A DNA stretch of 64,000 nt from assembly GCA_041678685.1 (NCBI GenBank), contig JBAYNV010000002.1, forward strand, positions 246 to 64,245, read 5' to 3'. Source of the stretch: Clostridia bacterium. Its GTDB lineage: Bacteria; Bacillota; Clostridia; DUPQ01. The translations under genes were made by a program, and so were the position numbers. The stretch's first letter is position 1, and every line of letters starts with the position of its first letter. Shown in pieces: positions 5,559 through 50,093 of this stretch. Below the pieces are notes generated by a model that saw only the letters and a list, made by a program, of their open reading frames with translations, was not told the origin of the DNA and searched no databases.

Positions 5559-7826
5559 GTGATGAAAAAGAAGTTCAGTTTTAAAAGTGCATATCTGTTT
5601 CCTTTTCTTGGAGTGTTTCTGTTTCTTCTCATTTTCATCATGTTGTATCAGATGAGATATTCTATAAGCCAATTTGTTATGGAACAGGCTTCAACAGATA
5701 CTGAGATAATAACCAGGGAAAAAGCATCACTTTTCAGTTCATTGCTTGAAAACCACATCATCGAGGCGGAAAACATACTGGATTATTCAATATCATCTTT
5801 TAAAACTATAGACAATGAGTTTGATGCGAGGGAAGAGCTTGCTGATTACTTCAGGGGCAAGAATTGTACGAAATTCTTCTATATCATGAACGATGAAAGA
5901 GTATACGACCAGGATGCAAGATTGTATCTGACAATCGAGGATAATCTGGAAACCCTTATAGAAAAATCAGAGACAGCAGTGAGCGAACCATTCATAGACG
6001 ATATAACTGGTATGGAGCTGATCATCATATATATAGACAACCCTGACGATCAGAGCGAGGTAAAAGGGATCGCAGCATATTATAAGGCATCAAGCCTGTA
6101 TATGGTAAGCGAATTCTTCGAAGCTGAAAGTGGAAGCTACTATATTCTGGACAAAAACGGAAATGCTGTGTTTTCACAGGATAAAGGGATCACACTCCTG
6201 GGTATTATGACAGAGCATTCATTCGCAGAGGATGAAATTTCTGATCTTCAGGCGTTTATAACCGCAGACGGGACAACAGAAACAAAGATCAGCAGTTACG
6301 ACAGCACAGTAATAAGTATAAGCAAAATAAGTAATATGTCGGACTGGTATGCCGTATCTATTCTGCAAAGCAGTATCATTTCCGAGAAAACAGCTTCTGT
6401 AGTGGATCAGACAATGTTGATAAGCGGCATTATAATGGCAGTATTCCTGGTATTGATAATGATCTTTCTGGCATCAGACAGGAATTCGACAAGGCAAATG
6501 GAAAGGCTCCAGAGCATAGATACTATTGCTGAATGCAGTAATCAATTCAAGTTCGAACTTGATGCTCAGGAGTTATTGAGAGTAAATAAAACAACAAAAT
6601 ATGCTATCCTGTATATCAATATCCTGAATTTTAAACACATAAAGCAGCTGTTACCTAGTGCTGAAGTGAACACTATGGTAAAGAACCTGTCAGATGTATT
6701 AAAAAAATCGGTCATCAAGAACCTGGAAACATATGGCAGAACATCTGACGGTCGTTTTGTCGTACTGATCATTTACAAGGAGATATTTGAAATACAAAAC
6801 CGTTATGAGGAGATCGTAAAGAATCTGAATGATATCGGTCCTGTAAGCGGATATGCAATGAGGACAAATGCAGGAGTTTATTGTGTTGACAGGACATCAA
6901 GATATCATATCACTGAAATGATAGACAGGGCTGCATTTGCACAGAATTCGTTAAAAGAAGATTCAAGCCAGACATTGGAATTCTACCATCAGAAGAGCCA
7001 TGAGGACCTGATGAAAACTATTGCTCTTGAGGGATTCATGGAAAAAGCTTTAAAAAATGATGAGTTCGTTATCTATCTTCAGCCTAAATATGATATACAG
7101 CATAACCGTATAGACGGAGCTGAAGCACTTGTCAGATGGATCAGGCCGAATGAAGGTATCGTATCTCCTTCACAGTTCATCAATCTTTTCGAAAGAAGCG
7201 GGTATATTTCCGCACTGGATAAGTTCGTTTTCACGGAAATATGCAAATTCCAGAATAACCGCTCCAGAGAAAATAAGCGGGTCATCCCGATATCGATAAA
7301 TGTATCGCGTGCAAGTGCGGAAAAAGAAGACTTTTTGGACTATTATGTGAGCACAAAAAAGAAATACCAGGTACCTGACAGATTTCTTGAACTGGAATTC
7401 ACAGAAAGCCGTGCATTAGAAGATTATGAAACATTGGGAAAGAGGATAACTGAACTGAAACAAAACGGGTTTGTATGTTCGATTGATGATTTCGGAGCTG
7501 GTTATTCATCATTTAAAGCATTACAGGCATTGGATTTTGATATCATAAAGTTAGATGCTTCCTTCCTTGAGAATCCCTCAGGTAATGAGGAAAAAAACAT
7601 GAACCTGATCTCAGGAGTTATAGCGATGGCCAGATCACTTAAGATGAAGGTCATAGCTGAAGGCGTTGAAACAAAAGCTGAACTGAAAATGCTGCGCGAA
7701 CTGAAATGTGATGTCATACAGGGTTACCTATATGCTCACCCGATGAACATGGCCGATTATTCTATATTTGTCGAAAAAGCTTTAAATATGAAAAGCAGCA
7801 GCTTCCTGGCAGATGAAGAGGGATGA
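5559..7826 (+). CDS. membrane sensor with extracytoplasmic domain, degenerate GGDEF and intact EAL domain (c-di-GMP phosphodiesterase)
   Basis: Two TM segments flank a ~250-aa extracytoplasmic region. The GGDEF position reads SDGRF (degenerate). EAL motifs are intact: GAEALVRW, INVS, ELEFTES, DDFGAGYSS, KLD, EGVET, QGYLY. Confidence 0.8.
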   Translation: MMKKKFSFKSAYLFPFLGVFLFLLIFIMLYQMRYSISQFVMEQASTDTEIITREKASLFSSLLENHIIEAENILDYSISSFKTIDNEFDAREELADYFRGKNCTKFFYIMNDERVYDQDARLYLTIEDNLETLIEKSETAVSEPFIDDITGMELIIIYIDNPDDQSEVKGIAAYYKASSLYMVSEFFEAESGSYYILDKNGNAVFSQDKGITLLGIMTEHSFAEDEISDLQAFITADGTTETKISSYDSTVISISKISNMSDWYAVSILQSSIISEKTASVVDQTMLISGIIMAVFLVLIMIFLASDRNSTRQMERLQSIDTIAECSNQFKFELDAQELLRVNKTTKYAILYINILNFKHIKQLLPSAEVNTMVKNLSDVLKKSVIKNLETYGRTSDGRFVVLIIYKEIFEIQNRYEEIVKNLNDIGPVSGYAMRTNAGVYCVDRTSRYHITEMIDRAAFAQNSLKEDSSQTLEFYHQKSHEDLMKTIALEGFMEKALKNDEFVIYLQPKYDIQHNRIDGAEALVRWIRPNEGIVSPSQFINLFERSGYISALDKFVFTEICKFQNNRSRENKRVIPISINVSRASAEKEDFLDYYVSTKKKYQVPDRFLELEFTESRALEDYETLGKRITELKQNGFVCSIDDFGAGYSSFKALQALDFDIIKLDASFLENPSGNEEKNMNLISGVIAMARSLKMKVIAEGVETKAELKMLRELKCDVIQGYLYAHPMNMADYSIFVEKALNMKSSSFLADEEG

Positions 7827-36800: not shown

Positions 36801-37597
36801 GACCCAGAGTATTCATCCCTGTTTTCCCCGGGACCAACTGCGAGTATGATATGGCAAGGGCTTTTCTTGATCAGGGAGCACAATGCAATATACAGGTACT
36901 TCGTAATCTGACTTCGGATGATATCGAACAGTCTGCAAAAGAATTCGTGAAGGCGATCGAAGAAGCGAATATAATAGCTCTTCCCGGCGGTTTTTCAGCC
37001 GGTGACGAACCGGACGGTTCAGGCAAGTTCATAGCGACCGTATTCAGAAATGAATATATCAAAGATGCTGTTCATGATCTTTTATATAACAGAGACGGGT
37101 TGATCGTTGGCATCTGTAATGGATTTCAGGCGCTTGTCAAGCTTGGCCTGGTTCCTAACGGTAAGATATGCGATCTGTCTTTAAACAGCCCCACACTCAC
37201 CTATAACAGCATTGGACGCCATGTATCATGCATGGTAATGACCAAAATAATATCAAATATATCCCCGTGGTTTTCCTGCAGTGAAACTGGCGGCGTGTAT
37301 ACCATACCTTTGAGCCACGGGGAAGGCAGATTCATATGCTCAGAGGAAATGTATAAAACGTTATCAGCCAATGGACAGATCGCTACTCAGTACGTAGATG
37401 AAAACGGTGATGCAAGTTATGATATCAGGTTCAACCCTAACGGTTCATATTATGCTATAGAAGGTATAACAAGTGCGGACGGAAGGATATTGGGCAAGAT
37501 GGGGCATTCCGAAAGATTCGGGAATAATGTCGCTAAAAATATCCCCGGGATAAAGGACCAGAAGCTGTTTGAATCAGGTGTCAGATATTTCAGATAA
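33839..37597 (+). CDS. purL: phosphoribosylformylglycinamidine synthase, single-chain large type (PurL with fused glutaminase domain)
   Basis: TTG start with RBS AAAGGGGAG; 1252 aa; AIR-synthase-like repeats (HNHP, GGAATCIGG); C-terminal class-I GATase VFIPVFPGTNCEYD...GICNGFQ. Confidence 0.95.
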   Translation: MKNVIRIFVERRLGFDLEAERLKNQFLTLLEIKNIDSVRLFNRYDIQGLSDKVYRDAKYGIFAEIQTDTVYEEHLPEMPDTEVFAYEFLPGQYDQRADSCEQCIQLISQTRPIVRTAKVIAVSGSVTENDIDKIKAYMVNPVECRLACDEKPEDLTAVFDTPQTVETIKGFIGLDKKEIGKMRRSLGLAMSLLDLLFVRDYFIGQHRDPTITEIRLIDTYWSDHCRHTTFNTKLENVIIEDDKFNVTCKKAWDRYLNTRKELNSEKTICLMDIATIGAKYLKKNGYLDDMEITEENNACSIIVNIDTDKGPEEWLIMFKNETHNHPTEIEPFGGAATCIGGAIRDPLSGRAYVYQAMRVTGAGDPLAELKDTLPGKLPQIKIVREAANGYSSYGNQIGLATGQVDEIYHNGYTAKRMEIGAVIAAVPKKNIVRKDAEAGDVVILIGGRTGRDGLGGATGSSKEHTDESLSKCGAEVQKGNPPTERKIQRLFRNPKMSLLIKKCNDFGAGGIAVAIGELAGGLDIDLDSVPKKYEGLDGTELAISESQERMAVVVDRKDMDTVMSLSREENLEATFVAVVTDTDRLRMKWKGSYIVDIKRSFLDTNGVTQITNARIIAKDSENDPFTAKPVNTSTRNRLENTLSDLNVCSKKGLIEKFDSTIGSNTVLMPLGGKYQMTPQECMAAKIPVLGKKTDICTLMSYAFFPKISEWSPFIGACYAVLGSVAKIVCAGGDHNKIRLSLQEYFESLRSDESRWGKPLEALLGAFYAQTELCIPAIGGKDSMSGTFMDLDVPPTLVSFAVSYMDSKNVISSEFKKNNSYIMRFAQKRNADETPDFIYARKLFTVINRLICEHKIISAMTVKSAGACEALLKMCFGNMIGFQSSSETELLFTPGYCDILIEIDSDRVKNISELLSSLKELDVVVIGKTVEEKVFKTKEESISLYELLGSYTSAYERVFTTTAKTVDPAITNGLYISKEIKHSTVHTARPRVFIPVFPGTNCEYDMARAFLDQGAQCNIQVLRNLTSDDIEQSAKEFVKAIEEANIIALPGGFSAGDEPDGSGKFIATVFRNEYIKDAVHDLLYNRDGLIVGICNGFQALVKLGLVPNGKICDLSLNSPTLTYNSIGRHVSCMVMTKIISNISPWFSCSETGGVYTIPLSHGEGRFICSEEMYKTLSANGQIATQYVDENGDASYDIRFNPNGSYYAIEGITSADGRILGKMGHSERFGNNVAKNIPGIKDQKLFESGVRYFR

Positions 37598-37632
37598 GGT
37601 ATTCGTGTTATAATGCATACGGAGGTACCGCA

Positions 37633-38670
37633 ATGATTTCGAAAACAGTCATAAAAAAGGTATTGGAATTTGATGATCCCGGTAGAATAGGCTTTGACTT
37701 CTATAACGATTCTTTTCGGGATATGAAATTCGTAGAATGTGAAGTGATCAAAAAAGAAGAGTATTCATGGCAGGAACCTTCATTTTTCAAAGAAAGATTC
37801 CCGCAGTATCATGATTTCGATGGATTCATGCATTTAGATGAATACGGGAATCTCTGGGGAAAAATGAGACATGACAAGACGGGTGGAGGAGAGGTTCTCA
37901 AAGGTGTTCTTGCTTCGTGGGATGAACTTGCCTCATATAGATTACCGGATATAGATGATGAAGCCAGGTTTAAGGATGCTCCGTTGAGCGTTGTTCCATA
38001 TAAAAACAGATTCATACTAGGATCGCTTCCGGGAAATACATTTTCGCTCATGAGGAAAATGAGAAAAATGGAATTATTCCTTGAAGATCTGATACTTGAA
38101 ACGGATAATGTATTGAAACTTCAGGATATGGTCCTGGAAAAACTATTGAATATCGTTGAGATATACGGACACATGAAATGTGTTGACGGTATATTCTTCT
38201 GTGAAGACTGGGGCACTCAGGACAGGCTTTTGATTTCACCAAAGATGTGGCGTGAAATATTTAAACCTGCATTTATAAAATTGTGTGATACCGCGCATAA
38301 ATATGGCATGAAAGTTTTTATGCATTCGTGCGGGTATATATATGAAATACTTGATGACCTTATGGAAGTAGGTATAGATGCATTACAGCTTGATCAGCCT
38401 ACTCTAATGGGAATAGAAAAGCTTGCAGACAAAATAGCAGGTAAAGTGACGCTCCATTCACCTGTGGACATACAGAGGATATTGCCTACAGGCAACAAAG
38501 AACTGATCGAGAAGAGCGCTTGCGATATGGTCCGTCTTTTTCATAGGAACGGCGGTCTGATAGTCAAGGACTATGGCGATTACACTACGCTTCACGTACA
38601 ATACGAATGGGCTGAATGGATGAGACAGAAATTCTTTGACATAGGCGGGGATCCCAGGATCAAAAAGTGA
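37633..38670 (+). CDS. uroporphyrinogen-decarboxylase (URO-D)-like family protein (MtaA/CmuA-type fold)
   Basis: C-terminal MHSCGYIYEILDDLMEVGIDALQLDQP pattern typical of the URO-D-like family; weak assignment. Confidence 0.5.
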   Translation: MISKTVIKKVLEFDDPGRIGFDFYNDSFRDMKFVECEVIKKEEYSWQEPSFFKERFPQYHDFDGFMHLDEYGNLWGKMRHDKTGGGEVLKGVLASWDELASYRLPDIDDEARFKDAPLSVVPYKNRFILGSLPGNTFSLMRKMRKMELFLEDLILETDNVLKLQDMVLEKLLNIVEIYGHMKCVDGIFFCEDWGTQDRLLISPKMWREIFKPAFIKLCDTAHKYGMKVFMHSCGYIYEILDDLMEVGIDALQLDQPTLMGIEKLADKIAGKVTLHSPVDIQRILPTGNKELIEKSACDMVRLFHRNGGLIVKDYGDYTTLHVQYEWAEWMRQKFFDIGGDPRIKK

Positions 38671-38730
38671 TGGAAGTCGAAAACAGTTTGTGGTAATATG
38701 TAAAAGATCGAAGTTGTAATGGAGATTTGA

Positions 38731-40056
38731 TTGAAGCAAAATATAGATATTGTGGACGAAAATTTAGCAGAAGCATCCAAAGAGAATGATGCAGTTGAAA
38801 TGGAAGAGGTTATAACAGAAAAAAAGCCTAACCGTTTTTTTGTGTTTCTTGATAAAATATGGAAACCCCGTTCACCAAGAAAACGGAGTGTTAAAAAAAT
38901 AGTCATATATAAGCCCAAGTCACAATTCAGGAAATTCGTTACTCTGATTTCATGGATTCTATTCCTGTTCACATTAGGTTTTGTGTTTTATAAAGGTTAC
39001 AATTTCACAAATACGCTCGTGACTGAGATAAGCAGATTTGATGCTAAGGCTGCCATAGGCACGATAGATGAGGAAAACGAAAAAAACATATATATACCTT
39101 CGAATTCCACAACAAAGCAGATAGCAAAAGTACTGATGGATGAGGGCATCATCGTTAATGATACATATTTTTGGATATACTCTATGTTTATGGGGAATGA
39201 AGGAAATTATAAATCCGGAAATCACGTCATCGATGCATCAGTGACATATGATGATGGCGAGATCGACCTTATAACCGCAGAGGGTTATGAAATGCTTATA
39301 TATATACTTTCACAGAACGGTGTGCCTAATCCTACAGTGAAACTATTCTTTACCGAAGGTCTTACAATTGGGCAGACTGTCAAGATATTCACTGATAAAG
39401 GTATAGCTGATGAAGATGAATTCCTCAATGTCTGCAATACATATGATTTTGATTATGACTTTATAGATCTTATACCAAAAGATACAAGAAGGACGAACAG
39501 GCTTGACGGTTATCTCTTCCCAGATACATATATATTTGATACAACAGTGGATGAGAGCATTAATATAGAAAAGATGCTGGATAACTTTGACAGTAAATTC
39601 AATGAAACATACAGAGCAAAAGCAGCTGAACTTGGGTACACGATAGACGAAATACTGATCATCGCTTCATTACTGGAAAAAGAAGCAGCGACTATGGATG
39701 AAAGAGCCATGATCGCAGGGGTCATATACAACAGGTTGAAATCCAAAGATGAAAGCCTTCAGTATCTGCAGATCGATGCAACGATCCAATATATATATAT
39801 CAATGAAACCGGCGCGGTAAAAGAAAAGCTTACAAATGAAGACCATAAGATACTGAACAGTTATAATACATATATGTATGCGGGGCTTACTCCCGGTCCG
39901 ATATGCAATCCGTCATTATCCAGTATCGCTGCAGCGCTTTATCCCGAAGTACACAACTATTATTATTATGTAGCAAAGAATGATGGCACTGACGCTCATG
40001 CATATGCTACGACGCTTGCTCAACATAATTACAACGTTTCGATATACTCGAAATAA
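38731..40056 (+). CDS. mltG: endolytic murein transglycosylase MltG (YceG family)
   Basis: TTG start with RBS; N-terminal TM; YceG motifs ASLLEKEAAT, AGVIYNRL, LQIDATIQY. Confidence 0.8.
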   Translation: MKQNIDIVDENLAEASKENDAVEMEEVITEKKPNRFFVFLDKIWKPRSPRKRSVKKIVIYKPKSQFRKFVTLISWILFLFTLGFVFYKGYNFTNTLVTEISRFDAKAAIGTIDEENEKNIYIPSNSTTKQIAKVLMDEGIIVNDTYFWIYSMFMGNEGNYKSGNHVIDASVTYDDGEIDLITAEGYEMLIYILSQNGVPNPTVKLFFTEGLTIGQTVKIFTDKGIADEDEFLNVCNTYDFDYDFIDLIPKDTRRTNRLDGYLFPDTYIFDTTVDESINIEKMLDNFDSKFNETYRAKAAELGYTIDEILIIASLLEKEAATMDERAMIAGVIYNRLKSKDESLQYLQIDATIQYIYINETGAVKEKLTNEDHKILNSYNTYMYAGLTPGPICNPSLSSIAAALYPEVHNYYYYVAKNDGTDAHAYATTLAQHNYNVSIYSK

Positions 40057-40060
40057 AACA

Positions 40061-40714
40061 ATGGTCAAAAGATTCAATATAGTCAACGCTTCCGTAGAAA
40101 AATACATCGAGGATACTCTTCATCCTTTGGAAGGGCAGTTGAAGGTACTTTACGATGAAGCTGTTTTAAAGTGCATACCTGTCGCAAAAATAGAGACTTT
40201 AAGAATGCTCGGAACCGTGATGTCCATAAAGAAACCAGGGAAAATATTAGAACTTGGATGTGCCATTGGTCTTTCCAGTATGTTCTTTGCAGGATATCTT
40301 AATGAAGGCGGCAGTATTGACACTGTAGAATGCGATCTTGACATGGCCGGGACAGCAAAAAGTAATATTATAAAATATGGGTACTCTGATAAGATCAACG
40401 TTGTATATGCCGAAGCATACGACTATCTGTCTAATGTAAATAAGAAATATGATATAATATTCATCGATGCAGCTAAGGGACAGTATGAAAGATATTTCGA
40501 TCTCTGTTCAGAAATGCTCGATCGCGGCGGTATCATGATCGCAGATAATGTTCTGTACAGAGGCATGGTAGCAAAAGGTGATAAAGTGCCTCACCGGCAA
40601 AAAACTCTTGTGGAGAGGCTGAGAAGCTTTCTGGACAGGATAACGAAAGATGAAAGGTTTGACACCGCGATCCTGTCGATCGGAGACGGATTATCGGTAT
40701 CGGTAAGGAAATAA
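40061..40714 (+). CDS. trmR: class I SAM-dependent O-methyltransferase (YrrM/TrmR-like)
   Basis: ILELGCAIGLSSMFFA SAM motif and DIIFIDAAK; directly downstream of mltG as yrrM is in Bacillus. Internal ATG at 40061 chosen over the overlapping 39980 start. Confidence 0.7.
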   Translation: MVKRFNIVNASVEKYIEDTLHPLEGQLKVLYDEAVLKCIPVAKIETLRMLGTVMSIKKPGKILELGCAIGLSSMFFAGYLNEGGSIDTVECDLDMAGTAKSNIIKYGYSDKINVVYAEAYDYLSNVNKKYDIIFIDAAKGQYERYFDLCSEMLDRGGIMIADNVLYRGMVAKGDKVPHRQKTLVERLRSFLDRITKDERFDTAILSIGDGLSVSVRK

Positions 40715-41961
40715 TGAAACCCGAATTGCTGGCTCCCGCTGGAAACAGGGAAAAAATGAAGGTTGCCTTTGAATATGGCGCAGATGCCGTTTATCTGGGG
40801 CTGACCAGATTCAGTTTACGAGATAAATCAGAGAATTTCAGTCCCGAAGAATTATTCGAGGCTGTCGTATATTCGCATGGAATAAATAAAAAAGTATATG
40901 TTACAGTGAATATAATTCCAAAGAATAAGGATCTTGATGATATAAAAGTACTGTTGCAGCAGATAAATGAAGCAAAACCGGACGGTATAATAATAGCGGA
41001 TCCGGGTGTTATAGCATATGCAAAGAAATATGCCAAAGGCATAGATATACATGTAAGCACGCAGGCAAACATAATCAACAGGGAAAGCGCAAAATTATTC
41101 TGCAGGCTGGGTGCAAAAAGGCTGATACTCGGCAGGGAACTTACTTTGAACGATGTCAGGGAAATCAAAAAGGCCATTGGTAAAGAACATGAGATCGAAA
41201 TATTCGTTCACGGAGCCATGTGTGTCTCATATTCGGGGAGATGCCTTTTGAGTGCATACATGACAGGCAGGGATTCAAACCAGGGAGACTGCGCACAGCC
41301 ATGCAGATGGAATTATTCATTGATGGAGGAGAAGAGACCCGGGCAGTATTATCCTGTATATGAAGACGAAAACGGATCATATATATTGAATTCGAAAGAT
41401 CTCTGCATGATAGAATACATAAAGGAACTTATCGAATGCGGTTCCGACAGTTTTAAGATAGAAGGGCGCATGAAAAGTTCTTTTTACGTTGCGTGCGTTG
41501 TAAAAGGCTACAGGATGGCGCTGGATGGCTTTTTCCTTGACCCTGGGATATACGAGGCCAATAAGGATGAATATCTTAGGATCGTAAGCATGGCGAGTCA
41601 CCGGGACTATACTACTGCATATAACCTGGGTGATGAGGATCATATCAGAAAAACAAAAGATTCAATGATATACAGTACATCAAGTTATGTCAGGACCCAT
41701 TCCTATGTCGGGATCGTTATCGATTATGACCCGGTTCATTCACTTGCCAAGATCAGGGAAATGAATCCGTTATTTGAAGGCGATGAGATACAGATGTTGG
41801 TACCCGGTGAAAGCAACTTCAGGCAGAAAGCGCATACGATGTCTGATGAAAATAACGAATCAATAAAAGCAGCAAACCATCCGGAAATGATATATTATAT
41901 GAAAATGGACAGACCCGTAAGAAAAGACACAATAATTATTACTGAGGTGAAGAATGGATAA
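40714..41961 (+). CDS. trhP: peptidase U32 family protein (TrhP/YrrO-like)
   Basis: MKPELLAPAGN N-terminus characteristic of the U32 family; synteny with mltG-trmR. Confidence 0.75.
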   Translation: MKPELLAPAGNREKMKVAFEYGADAVYLGLTRFSLRDKSENFSPEELFEAVVYSHGINKKVYVTVNIIPKNKDLDDIKVLLQQINEAKPDGIIIADPGVIAYAKKYAKGIDIHVSTQANIINRESAKLFCRLGAKRLILGRELTLNDVREIKKAIGKEHEIEIFVHGAMCVSYSGRCLLSAYMTGRDSNQGDCAQPCRWNYSLMEEKRPGQYYPVYEDENGSYILNSKDLCMIEYIKELIECGSDSFKIEGRMKSSFYVACVVKGYRMALDGFFLDPGIYEANKDEYLRIVSMASHRDYTTAYNLGDEDHIRKTKDSMIYSTSSYVRTHSYVGIVIDYDPVHSLAKIREMNPLFEGDEIQMLVPGESNFRQKAHTMSDENNESIKAANHPEMIYYMKMDRPVRKDTIIITEVKNG

Positions 41962-43201
41962 AAAGATAGGTTTTATCGGAGCCGGGAATATGGGAAGCTC
42001 CCTTATAAAAGGTTTTAAAAAGAGCGGTTCAGTCATATATATAACCGACAAGGATATAACCAAGGTGGAAAATCTTCTTGACAAGAAAACGAAAATACTG
42101 GCTACTGTTCATGATGTTATAAAAAAGTCAGATACGGTGATCATCTGTGTAAAACCAAACCAGATGGATGATCTGCTGACGGATATCAGCAGTTTTGATA
42201 TCGATCTTGCTGATAAACTGTTCATATCGATAGCTGCAGGAAGGAAGATCGCATCATATGAAAAAATACTAAAAGGTATAAGATGCATCCGTGTAATGCC
42301 AAATATGCCGGCATCCATTTCATTGGGTATGACATCTCTGTGTAAAGGAAGTTATGCTTCCGATGCTGATATGGAGCATGCAGAGGAGCTTTTCGGTTTT
42401 ATTGGCAAAACGGTGGTAGTTGAAGATGAGAGCCTTATGAACATCACGACTGCAGTCGCAGGTTCAGGACCTGCATTTGTTTTCATGTTCATAAAAGCGC
42501 TGCAGGACACTGCCATGAACAATGGTATATCAGCTGATGATGCAAGGATGATGGCATGCCAGACGGTGATAGGTTCAGCATCATATGTGCTGGAAGATGG
42601 AAGGAACATCGATGACCTTATAAAATCCATCTGTTCGCCTAATGGTACGACGATCGAAGGTGTTAACAGACTTAACGGGAAAGACTTTATGAATATAGTA
42701 AAAGAAGCGGTCGAAGTAACGAAAAACAGATGTATAGAAATGAGCGGTGATATAAAAAGATCCGAAATAGTAGAGATATATACTGATGGCGCATGTCAGA
42801 ATAATCCCGGTCCCGGAGGTTACGGAGCAATATTGATATATAACGGAACGGAAAAGGAAATATCCGGATATAAGGCAGAGACTACCAATAACGAAATGGA
42901 ACTTACCGCTGCAGTAGAAGCTTTGAAGCTTCTAAAGAAAACCTGCGAAGTAGTGCTTTATTCGGATTCGTCATATCTTATAAATGCGTTCAACCAAAAG
43001 TGGGTCGATAGCTGGAGATCAAACGGATGGGTAAGGGACAAAAACGGTGAAGTCAAGAATCTGGAGTTATGGAAAACACTCGATGCATACAACAATACAC
43101 ACAGGATGACATGGGTGAAGGTAAAAGGACACAGCGACAATAAATACAATAACAGATGTGATAAGCTTGCCAGGGATGCGATAAAGAATAAAGGTATCTG
43201 A
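41954..43201 (+). CDS. fusion ORF: pyrroline-5-carboxylate reductase (ProC) N-domain plus RNase HI C-domain
   Basis: Residues 1-~265 carry ProC motifs GFIGAGNMG, KPN, ISIAAG, RVMPNMP, GSGPAF. Residues ~270-415 are RNase HI: YTDGACQNNPGPGGYGAIL (Asp), TNNEMEL (Glu), YSDSSYL (Asp), KGHSDNKYNNRCDKLAR (Asp). Continuous frame, no stop. Confidence 0.75.
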   Translation: MDKKIGFIGAGNMGSSLIKGFKKSGSVIYITDKDITKVENLLDKKTKILATVHDVIKKSDTVIICVKPNQMDDLLTDISSFDIDLADKLFISIAAGRKIASYEKILKGIRCIRVMPNMPASISLGMTSLCKGSYASDADMEHAEELFGFIGKTVVVEDESLMNITTAVAGSGPAFVFMFIKALQDTAMNNGISADDARMMACQTVIGSASYVLEDGRNIDDLIKSICSPNGTTIEGVNRLNGKDFMNIVKEAVEVTKNRCIEMSGDIKRSEIVEIYTDGACQNNPGPGGYGAILIYNGTEKEISGYKAETTNNEMELTAAVEALKLLKKTCEVVLYSDSSYLINAFNQKWVDSWRSNGWVRDKNGEVKNLELWKTLDAYNNTHRMTWVKVKGHSDNKYNNRCDKLARDAIKNKGI

Positions 43202-45162
43202 TGACAAAAAAAAGTATTGAGATCATAAGCACGCCTGAATCTATATTTCTTGCTTCTCTGTTTAAAAGACTGTTTTTCGCAAAGTCAAAAAACAGGATGA
43301 GAACGCCTTCAAAGAACAAGATCGCAAGGTTCTCCTCTGACATTTACCACATGTATAAACAAAGGATCACTGTTAATAATGCTGAAATGTATATAAGAAG
43401 AGCAAGACTCATGCTGAAAAATGTAATGCCATTTTTCAGTGAAACCTCCTGCACTGAAGAGATGCTTGATGAGATACTAAAAAAAATGGCATGCACTGAA
43501 TTATATATGTATGAGATATATAAAACAGGGCAATATGTATATCCTGATGTTTTTGATATGTTTGAAGATGAGAAAACTGCAGCCAAACTGGTGAACAACA
43601 CAGTTCTTGATCTATATAGAACCGTTTTTCTTAGAAGGATAGCGAAAGAACAGATAGAGAAACTGATACCTGACAATCCGAAAGATGAATATCCCGAAAC
43701 AAGGAAAATGAAAAGACAGTTTATTATTCATATCGGTCTGACTAATACCGGGAAGACTTACAGCGCGCTTGAGGCATTAAAAGCAGCAAAAAAAGGCGCA
43801 TATCTTTCACCTTTAAGATTACTTGCTCTGGAGGTGCAGGAACGCCTTATAGATGATAATGTACCATGCAGTATGCTCACAGGAGAGGAAGAAGATATAA
43901 TCGAAGGGGCTGATCACATAGCATCAACAGTTGAGAAAGCAAATTACAGCGAGCATTATGATGTTGTTGTAATAGATGAATGCCAGCTTATACAGGATGA
44001 AGACAGGGGATGCTGGTGGACAAAGGCGATACTTGGAATGAAAGGTGCCGAAATGCACTTATGCTGTGCGCCGGAAGCCAAAGACATACTTGTTACTATC
44101 GTAGAGGATTGTAAAGACAAGTATAAAATAGTTGAGCACACAAGGAATACCGATCTCGTCTTTTCAAAAAAGCCATTCAGACTCGAGAAAGCGGAAAGAG
44201 GCGATGCTCTTGTTGTTTTTTCCAGAAAGAGCGTTTTACGGGTCGCAGATGAGCTTTACAGATCCGGAAAGAAAGCAAGCATGATCTATGGTGCATTGCC
44301 ATATAAAACAAGAAAAGAACAGTTGAAAATGTTTCTTGAAGGTAAAACCGATGTTGTCGTTGCGACAGATGCAATAGGTATGGGTCTTAATCTGCCTATA
44401 AGAAGGATAGTATTTCTGGAAACCGAGAAATATGATGGAACACAGACAAGGATGCTGGTACCATGGGAAGTGAAACAGATCGCAGGCAGGGCAGGCAGAC
44501 AGGGAATGTACGAAAAAGGATATGTGTCAACAGTAAGCGATCCTGAAATCATACAGCAGAGCCTTGATACTCCAAATAGTAGAATCGAATATGCGTATCT
44601 TGGATTTTCGGATGTTTTGCTGGATATAGACTGTGACATCGTAGATGCTTTGAAAATATGGAAGTCTATGCCAACAGGCAGCTTTTATGTGAAACAGGAT
44701 GTGACAAGGACAATAAATCTATGCGAGCTTGTAAAAAAGATACACGATTCATTTACGAAAAAAGAAATGCTTCGGCTGTCTTCCATACCATTTGACGAGG
44801 GAAACGAAACGGTACTGGAGCTTTTCAAGGATTACACGCTGTTATATTCATATAAGGAGGAAATATTTAAACCGTCTCTTAAGGGTTATAGCCTCATCGC
44901 TCTTGAGGACTACTATAAGTGTCTTGACCTGTATTATTCATTTGCAAAGAATATGGGATATAAACCAGATTTCGTATGGCTTAAAGACAAGAAGCTGGAG
45001 ATCGCAGACAGGATAAACAGGGAGCTTATGGACCATTCATCATTAAAAAGAGTAAAATGCAGCATATGCGGCAGGCCTTTGAATAAATATGACAGGAACG
45101 GGATATGCAGGATCTGTGAAAATGATAATAATCTTATTGAATTAGCGGTGAATAAAAACTAA
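43201..45162 (+). CDS. SUV3-family ATP-dependent helicase with C-terminal CxxC...CxxC zinc ribbon
   Basis: IIHIGLTNTGKTYSALE (motif I), SPLRLLALEVQERL, TGEE, VVVIDECQLIQDEDRGCWWTKAILG (DExQ, motif II), VATDAIGMGLNLPIRRIVF. C-terminal CSICGRPLN...CRICEN. Start overlaps the upstream stop (ATGA). Confidence 0.7.
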   Translation: MTKKSIEIISTPESIFLASLFKRLFFAKSKNRMRTPSKNKIARFSSDIYHMYKQRITVNNAEMYIRRARLMLKNVMPFFSETSCTEEMLDEILKKMACTELYMYEIYKTGQYVYPDVFDMFEDEKTAAKLVNNTVLDLYRTVFLRRIAKEQIEKLIPDNPKDEYPETRKMKRQFIIHIGLTNTGKTYSALEALKAAKKGAYLSPLRLLALEVQERLIDDNVPCSMLTGEEEDIIEGADHIASTVEKANYSEHYDVVVIDECQLIQDEDRGCWWTKAILGMKGAEMHLCCAPEAKDILVTIVEDCKDKYKIVEHTRNTDLVFSKKPFRLEKAERGDALVVFSRKSVLRVADELYRSGKKASMIYGALPYKTRKEQLKMFLEGKTDVVVATDAIGMGLNLPIRRIVFLETEKYDGTQTRMLVPWEVKQIAGRAGRQGMYEKGYVSTVSDPEIIQQSLDTPNSRIEYAYLGFSDVLLDIDCDIVDALKIWKSMPTGSFYVKQDVTRTINLCELVKKIHDSFTKKEMLRLSSIPFDEGNETVLELFKDYTLLYSYKEEIFKPSLKGYSLIALEDYYKCLDLYYSFAKNMGYKPDFVWLKDKKLEIADRINRELMDHSSLKRVKCSICGRPLNKYDRNGICRICENDNNLIELAVNKN

Positions 45163-45217
45163 TATATAGGTGTATCATGTGTGTGAAAAAATATATGGGT
45201 AATAGGAGTTTCATATT

Positions 45218-45877
45218 ATGAAAAGAGCACTGATCATGTGGGGCGGCTGGAAAGGCCATGAACCTGAACAGGTAGGTATCATTTTTGAGAATGTGTTGGA
45301 AAAAGAAGGATTTGAAGTTACGAGGACCGATACGCAGGATGTTTTAGGAGATCTTTCGGCACTGAAAGAATTTGATCTTTTCATTCCTCTTTGGACCATG
45401 GGTGAGATCGCAAACGATTATGTCAATAATGTCAGCGAAGCTTTAGGTGAATTCGGAGTCGGAATGGCGGGTTGCCACGGCGGGATGTGCGATTCATTCA
45501 GGCAGAGCACGAAATGGCAGTTTATAACCGGATCGCAGTGGGTCGACCATCCGGGTAATGACGGAACAGAATATATGGTAAATATCAAAAAAACATCTGA
45601 TTCAGAGATCATTAAAGGGATAGATGATTTTAAGGTGACATCGGAGCAGTATTACATACATGTCGATCCTGCAGTAAATGTACTGGCTACAACAAGATTC
45701 CCTCTAAAACCCGGTTATTATACGGCAAACGGAGCAGTTGATGTTCCGGTAGTCTATACGAAGAGATGGGGAAAAGCCAAAATTTTCTATAACAGCCTTG
45801 GACATGTTGCAAATGTGTTTGATATACCTGAAGCTTTGGAATTAATGCGCCGGGGATTTTTATGGGCGGCAAGATAA
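45218..45877 (+). CDS. ThuA-like / class-I glutamine-amidotransferase-like domain protein
   Basis: ALIMWGGWKGHEP N-terminus resembling the ThuA family; adjacent Gfo/Idh/MocA oxidoreductase (ThuB-like pairing). Confidence 0.4.
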   Translation: MKRALIMWGGWKGHEPEQVGIIFENVLEKEGFEVTRTDTQDVLGDLSALKEFDLFIPLWTMGEIANDYVNNVSEALGEFGVGMAGCHGGMCDSFRQSTKWQFITGSQWVDHPGNDGTEYMVNIKKTSDSEIIKGIDDFKVTSEQYYIHVDPAVNVLATTRFPLKPGYYTANGAVDVPVVYTKRWGKAKIFYNSLGHVANVFDIPEALELMRRGFLWAAR

Positions 45878-45888
45878 GGAGAGCATAA

Positions 45889-46992
45889 ATGAAAAAGGTA
45901 AATTTGGGAATAGTGGGATGCGGATGTATAAGCGGTATATATTTTAAGAACCTTACTACTGTGTTTAATGACATAATCAACGTATATGCATGTGCTGACC
46001 TGATTAAGGAAAGAGTCGAAAAAGCAGCACAGGAATATAATGTGCCTCATATAATGACTTTTGAAGAGATGCTTATATGCGAAGATATTGAATTGATCCT
46101 GTGCATCACACAGCCATGCTTCCATTATGATATCTGTAAAAGGGCTTTACTTGCCGGCAAGAATGTTTATACTGAAAAACCATTAAGTCTTGAATTCGGT
46201 CAGGGTAAAGAGCTTATGGATATAGCAAAAGAGAAGGGTCTGCTTCTTGGAGGCGCTCCGGATACCTTCATGGGAGCCGGGATACAGACATGCAGGAAGC
46301 TCATAGATGACGGATATATAGGTGATATAGTCGGAGCTACAGCCTTCATGATGAGCAAAGGCCATGAAAGCTGGCATCCGGATCCTGAGTTCTATTACAA
46401 AGCAGGCGGAGGGCCGATGTTCGATATGGGACCGTATTACATAACGGCTCTCATAAATCTGATGGGATCAGTAAAAATCGTAGCAGGCATGAACAACACT
46501 GCATTCGAAGAAAGAACGATCACAAGCCAGCCTCATTATATGGAGAAGATTAGAGTTGAGACGCCAACCCATGTATCGGCAATGTTATGTTTCACAAGCG
46601 GAGCGACCGCAAGCATCATAACAACATTTGACTGTAAAAAGAGCGATCTGCCTCTGATAGAGATATATGGAACAAAGGGAAGCATCAAAGTTCCTGATCC
46701 GAACTGCTTTGGAGGACCCGTCATGTTAGCGACATCCGATGGAACAGGGTATAAGGAAGTACCGCTCACTCATATTTATAATGAGAACAGCAGAGGGCTG
46801 GGGCTTGCTGATATGGCTTTAAGCATACGTACCAAGGATGCACCAAGAGCGGGTTGTCAGCAGAACGGCCATGTACTGGAAATAATGGATGCGGTTTTCA
46901 GGAGTTTTAAAACCGGCAGATATTATAAAATGACAACAAAATACAGAAGAATGAAGCCTATGAGCCGTGATATCATAAAGGGACAGATCTGA
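45889..46992 (+). CDS. Gfo/Idh/MocA family NAD(P)-dependent oxidoreductase
   Basis: N-terminal Rossmann motif LGIVGCGCISG; signature YTEKPLS motif. Confidence 0.85.
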   Translation: MKKVNLGIVGCGCISGIYFKNLTTVFNDIINVYACADLIKERVEKAAQEYNVPHIMTFEEMLICEDIELILCITQPCFHYDICKRALLAGKNVYTEKPLSLEFGQGKELMDIAKEKGLLLGGAPDTFMGAGIQTCRKLIDDGYIGDIVGATAFMMSKGHESWHPDPEFYYKAGGGPMFDMGPYYITALINLMGSVKIVAGMNNTAFEERTITSQPHYMEKIRVETPTHVSAMLCFTSGATASIITTFDCKKSDLPLIEIYGTKGSIKVPDPNCFGGPVMLATSDGTGYKEVPLTHIYNENSRGLGLADMALSIRTKDAPRAGCQQNGHVLEIMDAVFRSFKTGRYYKMTTKYRRMKPMSRDIIKGQI

Positions 46993-47066
46993 CGGTAAAA
47001 AAATATGCTTGATATGGTAGATTTTCTGTGTTATATTAGTAAGGCTTGAAATTTGGGAGGTAACGA

Positions 47067-47312
47067 ATGAGTGACACATTGAAGATAGTAGTTGGTATTG
47101 TACATATAATAGTATGTCTTGCAGTAATAGTAATGGTACTGATGCAATCCGGTAAATCAGGCGGATTGTCCGGAAGCATAGCAGGCGGAGCGGAAACCTT
47201 CTTCGGGAAAACCAAAGGTAAAGCAATAGATCAGATCCTTGGCAAGTATACAGTATATATAGCAATATTCTTTGCAGTTACAGCTATACTCCTTTACCTT
47301 ATATTAAAATGA
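47067..47312 (+). CDS. secG: preprotein translocase subunit SecG
   Basis: Two TM helices with LMQSGKSGGLSG between them; 81 aa. Confidence 0.85.
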   Translation: MSDTLKIVVGIVHIIVCLAVIVMVLMQSGKSGGLSGSIAGGAETFFGKTKGKAIDQILGKYTVYIAIFFAVTAILLYLILK

Positions 47313-47356
47313 TCGTCTGCTGAACGTTATATTTGATTTTCGATCCTAATTCACAT

Positions 47357-47381
47357 GAAAAGACCATAACGGTCTTTTTTG
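47357..47381 (+). terminator. rho-independent terminator after secG
   Basis: GAAAAGACC-ataac-GGTCTTTTTTG. Confidence 0.65.
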
Positions 47382-47431
47382 ATTTGCCTTAACGGATGTT
47401 CGATCAGTCTGTATGAAATGTGCAGATTACG

Positions 47432-47440
47432 TGATATAAT
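47432..47440 (+). promoter_or_regulatory. extended -10 promoter (TGaTATAAT) for ruvC-ruvA-ruvB-queH
   Basis: TGATATAAT lies 20 nt upstream of the ruvC ATG, with RBS AAGGAG. Confidence 0.4.
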
Positions 47441-47460
47441 CAGAAAATAAGGAGTATTCT

Positions 47461-47964
47461 ATGCGGATAATGGGTATCGATCCCGGATTTGCTATAATGG
47501 GTTATGGGATCATAAACTATGATAACGGTAAAGTGGAAGTGCTTGAATATGGAGTCATAAAGACCGAAGCACACACAGATTTCAACAAAAGACTGCTGGC
47601 CAATTATATGGGAATAAAGGAAGTATTGGATAGGTATGAACCTGATCATGTAGCAATGGAATCCTTATTCTATAACACGAACCAGAAGACCGTGATAAAT
47701 GTCTGCCAGTCAAGAGGTGTAGCGGTACTGGCTGTGGCTCAGAAAGACAAACCTTTTTTTGAATACACTCCGCTTCAGATAAAACAGGCTCTTGTGGGTT
47801 ATGGCAGGGCGGACAAGAACCAGGTACAGCAGATGGTTAAAGTATTAGGTAACCTGAAAGATATCCCAAAACCTGATGATGCTGCCGATGCTCTGGCTGT
47901 TGCCATATGTCATGCGAATTCCTACAGAGCTGAAAGGATTATGAAGAAATGTACGAATATATAA
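47461..47964 (+). CDS. ruvC: Holliday junction resolvase RuvC
   Basis: MRIMGIDPGFAIMGYGII, catalytic acidic residues, DAADALAVAICHA. Confidence 0.9.
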   Translation: MRIMGIDPGFAIMGYGIINYDNGKVEVLEYGVIKTEAHTDFNKRLLANYMGIKEVLDRYEPDHVAMESLFYNTNQKTVINVCQSRGVAVLAVAQKDKPFFEYTPLQIKQALVGYGRADKNQVQQMVKVLGNLKDIPKPDDAADALAVAICHANSYRAERIMKKCTNI

Positions 47965-48539
47965 AAGGGAAACTGATAACGAAAAAACAGGATCATGTCG
48001 TCATAGATAATAACGGTATAGGATTCAAGATATTTACCAGCCTGCATTCCATGACAAAGATGCAGCCGGATGACGATGTCCTGATGCATACATACCTTCA
48101 TGTAAGGGAAGACATTATGCAGATATTCGGATTTGCGGAAGAGGAAGAGCTTTTTCTTTTCAATCTGCTTATAAGCATATCAGGTATCGGTCCAAAAGCA
48201 GCTCTGTCGATACTTTCAGTTATGACACCGTCGGAGGTAGCTTTATCGGTCGTCAGCGATGATGCCGCATCTCTGTCAAAAGCTCCGGGTGTAGGTAAGA
48301 AGACAGCAATGAGGATAATACTTGAGCTTAAAGACAAATTAAAAGGATTGGCTATTTCTGAAAAACCGTCAGTCAATGAATGTATATCGAAAGACGATAA
48401 ATATGATGAGATAACCAATGCGCTTCTGGTACTTGGGTATCAGCCAAAATATGCACAGGAAGCTTTAGATCATGTATATGATATGAATGATACACTGCAG
48501 AACAATATCAGAAAAGCACTAAATTACCTGAAAAAATAG
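47949..48539 (+). CDS. ruvA: Holliday junction DNA helicase subunit RuvA
   Basis: MYEYIKGKL...GIGF; HhH motifs GIGPKAAL and PGVGKKTA. Confidence 0.9.
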
Positions 48540-48553
48540 GAGATCATGATTTA

Positions 48554-49555
48554 ATGGATGAAGAAAGATTTGTAACACCTACTTTTATTAAGAACGATCA
48601 GAGTGAAACCACACTTCGTCCCAAAGTTTTCGAAGAATATTTTGGGCAGGTAAAAATAAAAGCGAATCTCAAGGTTTTTATAGAAGCTGCAAAAAAGAGA
48701 AATGAACCGATAGACCATGTTCTTCTTGCAGGCCCTCCGGGACTGGGAAAAACCACTCTTGCAGGGATAATCGCATCAGAAATGGGTGCGAACATAAGGG
48801 TGACAAGCGGACCCGCGATCGAGAAAGCAGGGGATCTTGCTGCAATTCTTACGAACTTAAATGAAAACGATGTGTTATTTATTGATGAGATACACAGGTT
48901 GAATAAGACTGTAGAAGAGATCCTGTATCCGGCAATGGAGGATTTTGCTCTTGATATTATAATAGGTAAAGGACCAAGCGCAAAGACAATCAGACTCGAT
49001 CTTAACCGTTTTACCCTTATCGGAGCAACAACTAAGACAGGAATGCTTTCATCGCCGTTAAGAGACAGATTTGGCGTTACATGCAGGTTGGAAATGTATT
49101 CTACGGATGAACTCTGTCAGATAGTGAACAGAAGCGCAGGATTATTAAACATTAATATAAACGAATACGGGGCGAGTGAGATAGCAAGAAGATCACGCGG
49201 TACTCCAAGGATCGCAAACAGGCTGTTAAAAAGGATAAGAGACTTTGCACAGGTCGAAGGCGAAGATGTAATTACAAGTGAAATAGCGGATTTCGGATTG
49301 TCAAAACTTGAGATTGATAAACTCGGGTTGGATAATACTGACAGAGCGATACTAGAAACAATAGTCAAAAAGTTTGCAGGAGGCCCTGTAGGGGTCGGCA
49401 CCCTTGCATCAAGTATAAACGAGGAAAGAGACACCATTGAGGATGTATACGAACCATATCTGCTGCAGTTAGGCTTCATTAAAAAGACTCCGAAAGGAAG
49501 ATGCGCTACCCGCCTGGCATATGAGCATCTGAATATACCATATGAGCAAAAATAG
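48554..49555 (+). CDS. ruvB: Holliday junction DNA helicase RuvB
   Basis: [48 protein letters not shown]. Confidence 0.95.
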
Positions 49556-50093
49556 TTTGCTGCTGCACACATGTTGCGCACCATGCCTTGTATATGTTCA
49601 TAAAAAACTGAATGAATTGGGATCAGGATTTGATTCCTACTTTTACAATCCCAACATCCATCCGGTTATGGAGCACAGAAAAAGACTGGAAACGCTTACT
49701 GGGTATTGTGAAAGGTTTTCCATTGATCTTATAAAGAATGAGGAATTCCTTCAGGAACGCTGGGAATGCAAAGGCTATGAATGCCTGGACTGTTACAGGC
49801 TCAGGATGGAAGAAACGGCAAGATACGCAAAAGAACACGGATACAATGCTTTTTCCACCACATTACTAGTAAGTATTTATCAAAAACACGAAATAATAAA
49901 ACAAGTGTGTAATGACATGGCCGAAAAATATGGGATAGAATTCTTTTATTATGATTTTCGTGAAGGTTTCAGGGAAGGCCAGAATATGGCAAAAGAACTC
50001 GGATTATACAGACAGAAATACTGTGGATGCATAAACTCATATAACAGCTCTGTATTCAAAGACAAAATAACATGGACAGAGGAAAACAGATGA
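49542..50093 (+). CDS. queH: epoxyqueuosine reductase QueH (DUF208)
   Basis: [11 protein letters not shown]-terminal motif and conserved Cys pattern (CxxC, CGC) typical of QueH. Confidence 0.85.

Follow-up and report, generated by a model that had tools for sequence, protein, structure and literature searches.

A stretch of 64,000 nucleotides from a Clostridia bacterium (contig JBAYNV010000002.1 of assembly GCA_041678685.1; the whole stretch is referred to as the window) carries a single gene in which pyrroline-5-carboxylate reductase (P5CR, the proC product) is joined in frame to ribonuclease (RNase) HI, the rnhA product. Sequence comparisons indicate that this is a genuine and conserved gene fusion and not the product of an assembly or frameshift error, and that it arose from tightly packed neighbouring genes of a kind common in Clostridia. 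The reading we favour, with a probability of roughly 0.8, is that of a neighbour-gene fusion that gives one protein with two standard activities, which are probably independent of each other. P5CR catalyses the last step of proline synthesis and normally dimerises or forms higher oligomers, and RNase HI cuts the RNA strand of RNA:DNA hybrids with the help of divalent metal ions.

The open reading frame (ORF) listing of the window gives one ATG-started ORF of 415 amino acids at positions 41954..43201 of the forward strand (stop codon within), uninterrupted by any in-frame stop. A Shine-Dalgarno-like GAGGTG (41944..41949, + strand) is found 4 nt 5' of the ATG; its pairing energy with the anti-Shine-Dalgarno sequence, -6.9 kcal/mol, is within the range of the real gene starts of the window. 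The protein consists of three parts, all encoded on the + strand. Residues 1-263 (41954..42742) form the P5CR module with its Rossmann NAD(P)H and P5CR dimerisation domains (PF03807, PF14748, TIGR00112, 3gt0). They are followed by a variable linker, SGDIKRSE (residues 264-271, 42743..42766), which was delimited from a structural model and the homologue alignment, and by an RNase HI domain of the E. coli type with the basic protrusion (residues 272-415, 42767..43198; PF00075, NF001236, 3h08).

Both domains are full length. Pfam detected F420_oxidored (PF03807) at residues 4-96 (8.6e-19), P5CR_dimer (PF14748) at residues 159-263 (1.7e-31, profile positions 1-105 out of 105) and RNase_H (PF00075) at residues 272-410 (2.8e-41, profile positions 3-140 out of 141). 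Both halves also scored above the equivalog cutoffs of NCBIfam, the N-terminal half with 234.6 bits for TIGR00112 proC (cutoff 196.75) and the C-terminal half with 194.5 bits for NF001236 RNase HI (cutoff 160). An ORF of this length with two full domains is far beyond chance. The first-pass annotation of this DNA had described it as a single 415-residue ORF with an intact ProC followed by RNase HI; the ORF listing, Pfam and NCBIfam all agree with that description, and every motif quoted in it could be located, i.e. GAGNMG (residues 9-14), KPN (67-69), RVMPNMP (113-119) and GSGPAF (169-174) in the ProC half, and TDGAC (277-281), NNEMEL (312-317), YSDSSY (336-341) and RCDKLAR (401-407) in the RNase HI half.

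The C-terminal half aligns with E. coli RNase HI without a gap. D10, E48, D70, H124 and D134 of the E. coli enzyme are all matched, which gives D278, E316, D338, H393 and D403 as the active site of the fusion protein and bears out the earlier statement that the four catalytic carboxylates are conserved. Sequence comparison with the PDB returned RNase HI 3h08 (5.5e-47) and the E. coli 1rnh family for one half and the P5C reductases 3gt0 (6.7e-43), 5bse and 1yqg for the other, and no solved chain among the PDB matches spans both. The AlphaFold2 model, built from the fusion alignment, shows two well-formed domains with a mean predicted local distance difference test (pLDDT) value of 92.5 and a predicted template modelling (pTM) score of 0.67. 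A helix at residues 245-264 is followed by a strand at residues 272-281, with a pLDDT of about 70 in the block 261-270. The RNase H half follows the order beta-beta-beta-alpha-beta-alpha... with pLDDT values above 90. Given the pTM score and the low-confidence linker, no fixed interdomain interface is predicted; in other words, the model fits an arrangement like beads on a string.

The fused form recurs. In a search space of about 5.8 billion protein clusters, some 40 clusters of 397-449 amino acids were found in which the match extends over at least 96% of the query at 36-90% identity and PF14748 and PF00075 are both present. Their sources are NCBI, JGI, ENA and Logan assemblies, and with fusion clusters taken at 90% identity the single-ORF architecture was counted in about 38 independent ones. 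We note that a census of fusions via 50%-identity representatives was tried and rejected; it returned just three ProC-to-RNase H proteins (P0015, P0121, P0123), as fused proteins can hide in other clusters. What we call the window clade consists of the window protein and eight other clusters (P0001-P0007, P0009) that are 51-90% identical to it, every one of them fused. All nine clade clusters are 415-418 amino acids long and show a clean ProC end, ...R-x-I-E-M-S, before the start of RNase H.

Residue conservation was read from an alignment of 41 fusions (the window protein and 40 cluster members). The carboxylates D278, E316, D338 and D403 are the same in all of them, and the conservation of H393 is at least 90%. 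In the ProC half there is no variation at K67, P68, M115, N117, G170, P173 and A174, and almost none at S228, G231, T232 and T233; the S/T-x-G-(G)-T-T loop in the dimerisation domain of P5CR serves in substrate binding. In the GxGxxG loop M13 is invariant, while G9 and G11 are nearly invariant. The linker varies among the homologues both in sequence and in length. Two of the database 'fusions' (P0034 and P0035) lack the ProC C-terminal motif and have an out-of-frame-looking sequence before RNase H. Judging by their sequences, these two probably result from frameshift errors, or else the fusions are very recent and damaged; P0034 is the sister of a split pair (L016).

The likely origin of the fusion can be seen in genomes in which the two genes are still separate. 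GTDB species representatives were scanned for both halves, and 80 loci were retained among the 600 matches listed. At least 31 species-level Clostridia genomes have proC and rnhA as separate, adjacent genes on the same strand, as confirmed by checking the reading frames. They include the cultured Ruminiclostridium papyrosolvens C7, Christensenella tenuis NSJ-35 and Thermoanaerobacter thermocopriae JCM 7501 as well as metagenome-assembled genomes of Saccharofermentans and Mageeibacillus. Only two single ORFs (L010 and L017) were present among the matches listed. The spacer in 29 out of 31 split pairs is -4 (ATGA, five loci), -1 (TAATG, three loci) or 2-36 nt, and the split rnhA usually has a recognisable ribosome-binding site (e.g. 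'...YG-stop ...AGGAGGcggaATG KQVEIYTDGAC' in L001). Among the tightest arrangements are an in-frame TAA-TAA-ATG between proC and rnhA (L006, 6808-6816) and, in three further loci (L011, L012 and L018, near 6790-6800), a stop codon and an in-frame start codon that are 3 nt apart. By sequence, some split pairs are thus one point mutation away from a fusion, and readthrough of the stop would likewise give a fusion protein. The apparent excess of in-frame split pairs (17 out of 31) was rejected as an artefact: the high-scoring segment pairs of tblastn pass in-frame stops, which ranks such loci first, and indeed L001-L019 are all in frame and those from L020 onward are all out of frame.

Neighbour-joining trees were calculated for 74 fused and split pairs; they carry no support values, and the count of changes drawn from them is rough. 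The window clade is monophyletic and entirely fused, and elsewhere fused and split pairs are intermingled. At least five fused/split changes were required by Fitch parsimony, even after two suspect sequences were removed. The pairwise identities of the two halves are correlated (Pearson r = 0.66, Mantel p ~0.001), and the conservation is equal or nearly equal in fused and split proteins (ProC 0.40 vs 0.40; RNase H 0.54 vs 0.57). It follows that the pair behaves as a co-inherited unit and that neither enzyme was relaxed after fusion. The locus as a whole provides a natural series of fusion stages, i.e. ATGA overlaps, pairs separated by in-frame stops only, and fused genes.

A fusion of the same two families in the reverse order was found by an exhaustive profile search. 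The protein P0160 of Propionimicrobium lymphophilum has RNase H at residues 5-136 and P5CR at residues 202-464, both domains intact, and a linker of about 65 residues that is acidic and proline-rich. It is named 'ribonuclease HI / pyrroline-5-carboxylate reductase multi-domain protein' in GenBank (ETJ97137.1) and 'Multifunctional fusion protein' in UniRef (S2WHR8). RefSeq annotates just the 266-residue ProC part, a call that could make Propionimicrobium seem to lack RNase HI. The RNase HI-to-ProC order is common to six clusters, and the genes were located at L085 3866-5266 (P0160) and L091 4001-5464 (P0313). The fused Propionimicrobium clade has the arrangement Bmp-(cdd)-[RNase H::ProC], with metG next in L091. 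In related Propionibacteriaceae the locus reads Bmp-cdd-rnhA(+DUF4440)-metG, and proC is not close by. It follows that ProC replaced the usual tail at this locus, in an independent event that did not start from an operon pair.

Other partners of RNase HI turned up in the same searches, namely NUDIX, GNAT, NADAR/DUF1768 and, in Actinomycetota, DUF4440 (examples of varied partners are P0058, P0062, P0067, P0156, P0350 and P0409). The RNase HI-NUDIX fusion also looks neighbour-derived, as in 10 clostridial loci a NUDIX gene is situated directly 3' of rnhA. Further matches were proteins in which RNase H is repeated in tandem, with 2-3 copies (P0124, P0125, P0126, P0128, P0133), and a triple P5CR protein of 676 amino acids (P0122).

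The first-pass annotation had left two alternatives side by side, a genuine bifunctional protein and an assembly or frameshift artefact that joins proC and rnhA. A frameshift or a lost stop might falsely join separate genes, such genes do occur in more distant genomes, and P0034 and P0035 look like frameshift products. Nevertheless, the identical 415-residue sequence was recorded from JGI/ENA, the 89-90% identical relatives derive from other samples, the length class and the ProC end are uniform throughout the window clade, the GC content is unbroken across the junction, and the ribosome-binding site that precedes rnhA in the split genomes is absent in the window. Together with the shared synteny and the conserved residues this speaks for the fused gene, and we regard an artefact as next to impossible. 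A search for the same fusion in related genomes, which had been proposed as a check, returned some 40 clusters and a wholly fused window clade. A stop codon and a separate ribosome-binding site between the two genes, which had been named as signs against the fusion, were indeed found in relatives, but solely in the more distant Clostridia, so that they show where the fusion came from and do not disprove it. A different doubt concerns translation, i.e. RNase HI could also, or instead, be made alone from an in-frame ATG at the junction (M263, 42740..42742, + strand). NCBI takes this codon as the start of a 153-residue 'ribonuclease HI' (MFA7672339.1, P0271), 100% identical to residues 263-415, and a 58%-identical relative is likewise cut to a 154-residue RNase HI (MFA5341413.1, P0286); moreover, M263, the sole in-frame start codon at the junction, is kept in most fused homologues. 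However, its anti-Shine-Dalgarno pairing is -0.5 kcal/mol, to be compared with an in-ORF background of -2.7, a mean of -6.0 for 19 gene starts of the window and -5.2 kcal/mol for the rnhA starts of split pairs, so the internal ribosome-binding site that had been suggested as a further check was not supported at M263. Several homologues have L in place of M, and the fused L010 has no in-frame start codon within the 25 codons ahead of its RNase H domain. The idea that M263 is a relic of the rnhA start was rejected, since E-M-S is the native ProC C-terminus of the split genes ('...EMSR-stop', '...RMSK-stop'). With an internal start, the intact and conserved ProC frame of 262 codons would also have no stop codon to end it. 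On these sequence features M263 is probably not a real translation start, and we hold two products from this ORF to be very improbable. The NCBI call leaves an intact ProC of 262 codons unannotated, with the consequence that proline auxotrophy could be wrongly inferred for uncultured Clostridia.

According to the neighbour-gene reading, the stop/start boundary would have been lost between adjacent same-strand proC and rnhA genes that were packed as tightly as translationally coupled genes, and the window lineage would have inherited the fused form, placed in an mltG-methyltransferase-U32-[fusion]-Suv3 helicase operon. Translation would start at the ATG at 41954 and run through both modules to give one polypeptide of about 46 kDa; its N-terminal module is predicted to be a competent NAD(P)H-dependent P5CR and its C-terminal module a competent E. 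coli-type RNase HI. From the sequence we infer both enzymatic activities, their independence and the oligomeric state. The fusion would merely enforce 1:1 co-expression and tether RNase HI to P5CR, and the activities would most likely run independently. Some observations weigh against so plain a view. The proC-rnhA pairing persists over several clostridial lineages and is kept in diverse Clostridia despite reshuffled flanks, and a second, independent fusion exists in Propionimicrobium, in reverse order and without prior adjacency; the persistence and the second fusion exceed what is expected of a purely accidental joining. In addition, both domains stayed intact through the repeated fused/split changes, PF14748, the dimerisation domain, is part of the ProC half, and the linker of about 8 residues is short, like that of Rv2228c, whose partner domain was reported to enhance RNase H activity in vitro (cited in PMC7466739). 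These points would suit a functionally coupled ('Rosetta stone') fusion, in which ProC acts for RNase HI or RNase HI for ProC, and which we regard as unlikely. ProC could multimerise RNase HI and so provide avidity for long R-loops, or hybrid removal could be tied to NAD(P)H, proline or stress. No biochemical link was found in the literature searched, in agreement with the earlier claim that none is known. The model predicts no fixed interface, and the linker sequence is not conserved. In many Clostridia proC and rnhA are separate, or rnhA has no proC nearby (46 out of 84 loci scanned). RNase HI fuses with many unrelated partners, so that the recurrence of ProC could be a coincidence, and the best-studied analogue, RNase HI-CobC, has dissociated domains (PMC7466739). 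A coupled pair that is kept as a tight, probably translationally coupled operon, underwent fusion on several occasions and came about anew in reversed form in Actinomycetota therefore has a rather low probability in our view. If it were true, the RNase HI fusions with CobC, DUF4440, GNAT, NUDIX and ProC could share a logic in which the partner gives oligomerisation or regulation, and there would be an unexpected link between amino-acid/redox metabolism and R-loop control.

The fusion gene is part of a compact array of genes on the same strand. Upstream the order is purL, a URO-D-like gene, mltG (YceG), an O-methyltransferase (PF01596) and a U32 peptidase, and downstream a Suv3-like helicase, ThuA and a GFO/IDH/MocA oxidoreductase are followed by ruvC, ruvA, ruvB and queH. 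The members from mltG to the helicase overlap or abut. The U32 peptidase-family gene (40714..41961, +) ends within the fusion gene, overlapping its start by 8 nt in the same operon, and the Suv3-like DEXQ-box helicase (43201..45162, +; PF22527 3.3e-58, Helicase_C, SUV3_C) begins in the TGA of the fusion gene with a 1-nt TGATG overlap. The genes mltG, O-methyltransferase and U32 peptidase are themselves overlapping (38731-41961, +). This run is presumably similar to the yrrL-yrrM-yrrN/O cluster of Bacillus, in which the methyltransferase and the U32 proteins (TrmR/TrhP) act in tRNA ho5U/mo5U modification. The genes ruvC, ruvA, ruvB and queH are at 47461-50093 (+), and this part of the window consists for the most part of DNA/RNA-maintenance and housekeeping genes in one long co-directional array. 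Promoter and terminator motifs in the region 37000-47500 were counted at or below shuffle expectation.

The synteny of the window is shared by P0006 and P0009 (57% and 51% identical; contigs L081 and L086), the two clade contigs that were read. In other fused clades the flanks are unrelated to these: an integrase upstream and CotH downstream (P0025), an integrase upstream and VTT, SurE and Cmk downstream (P0012), or RecA and RNase Y upstream and Lgt and NAPRTase downstream (P0022). In two fused lineages that are unrelated to each other (L083 3225-4292; L087 1-4597), a tyrosine integrase is the direct upstream neighbour of the fusion gene, in L087 accompanied by DNA methyltransferases and a primase-polymerase-like gene, which suggests that an integrated mobile element abuts the 5' side of the fusion gene in these two loci.

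The neighbours of the pair were compared in 36 pair-bearing loci (35 fetched loci and the window). An XerC/D-type recombinase was recurrent downstream (20/36), as was a NUDIX hydrolase immediately downstream (10/36); further recurrent neighbours were SpoIIM, LexA, FtsK, MutL and MiaA, and proA and proB were not among the recurrent neighbours in these loci. The neighbours being those of DNA maintenance, with no proA or proB, the usual setting of the pair is housekeeping DNA maintenance, and proC is the odd one out. The Suv3 helicase was considered as a general partner of the fusion and rejected: it is linked in the window clade only and is absent beside other fused or split pairs. Human Suv3 is described in PMC9044407 as unwinding DNA-RNA duplexes. 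By analogy, RNase HI and Suv3 could form an RNA:DNA-hybrid module in the window lineage, and the RNase HI-Suv3 pairing may be more meaningful than that of RNase HI and ProC.

Literature searches returned nothing on a ProC/RNase H fusion or on a conserved clostridial proC-rnhA pair, with the limit that the query term 'proC' also matches the journal abbreviation 'Proc'. Both enzymes are ordinary members of their families, and the fused architecture is already present in public databases under automatic names. The finding is of value mainly for annotation, as NCBI records conceal the ProC half, and as a clean operon-to-fusion series. There is a modest chance that the fusion reflects a connection, so far unrecognised, of P5C reductase with R-loop metabolism.

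In comparison with known systems, the C-terminal half has the same full-length domain, DEDD+H active site and basic protrusion as stand-alone RnhA (1rnh, 3h08), but in place of a free monomer of about 155 residues it is found on the C-terminus of a dimerising enzyme, without a start signal of its own. The N-terminal half has the Rossmann domain, the dimerisation domain and the conserved motifs in common with stand-alone ProC (TIGR00112; 3gt0, 5bse, 1yqg), from which it differs by a C-terminal extension of 152 residues, i.e. the linker and RNase HI. The Propionimicrobium RNase HI-ProC protein combines the same two families, both intact. It differs in the opposite order, the linker of about 65 residues, the actinobacterial RNase HI subtype, the phylum and the route, i.e. 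the replacement of a DUF4440 tail at a Bmp-cdd-rnhA-metG locus as opposed to a proC-rnhA operon. The nearest parallel is RNase HI-CobC of Actinomycetes (Rv2228c, MSMEG_4305 of M. smegmatis, SCO2299 of S. coelicolor), in which RNase HI is likewise joined to a small-molecule metabolic enzyme that has no obvious tie to hybrid removal, and which is likewise clade-restricted, with a variable linker and both domains under purifying selection. In MSMEG_4305 the domains are functionally dissociated in vivo, and the fixation of the fusion was put down to drift (PMC7466739). The fusion protein scored 20.2 bits against NF005567, the bifunctional RNase H/acid phosphatase family (cutoff 326), in the RNase H part only, and Pfam detected no phosphatase domain in it; as judged by these matches, it is analogous to the Rv2228c-type family and not a member of it. 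The partner here is P5C reductase and not the histidine-phosphatase CobC, the order is partner-then-RNase H, the basic protrusion that is absent in Rv2228c of M. tuberculosis is present, and the origin is traceable to an operon pair that still exists.

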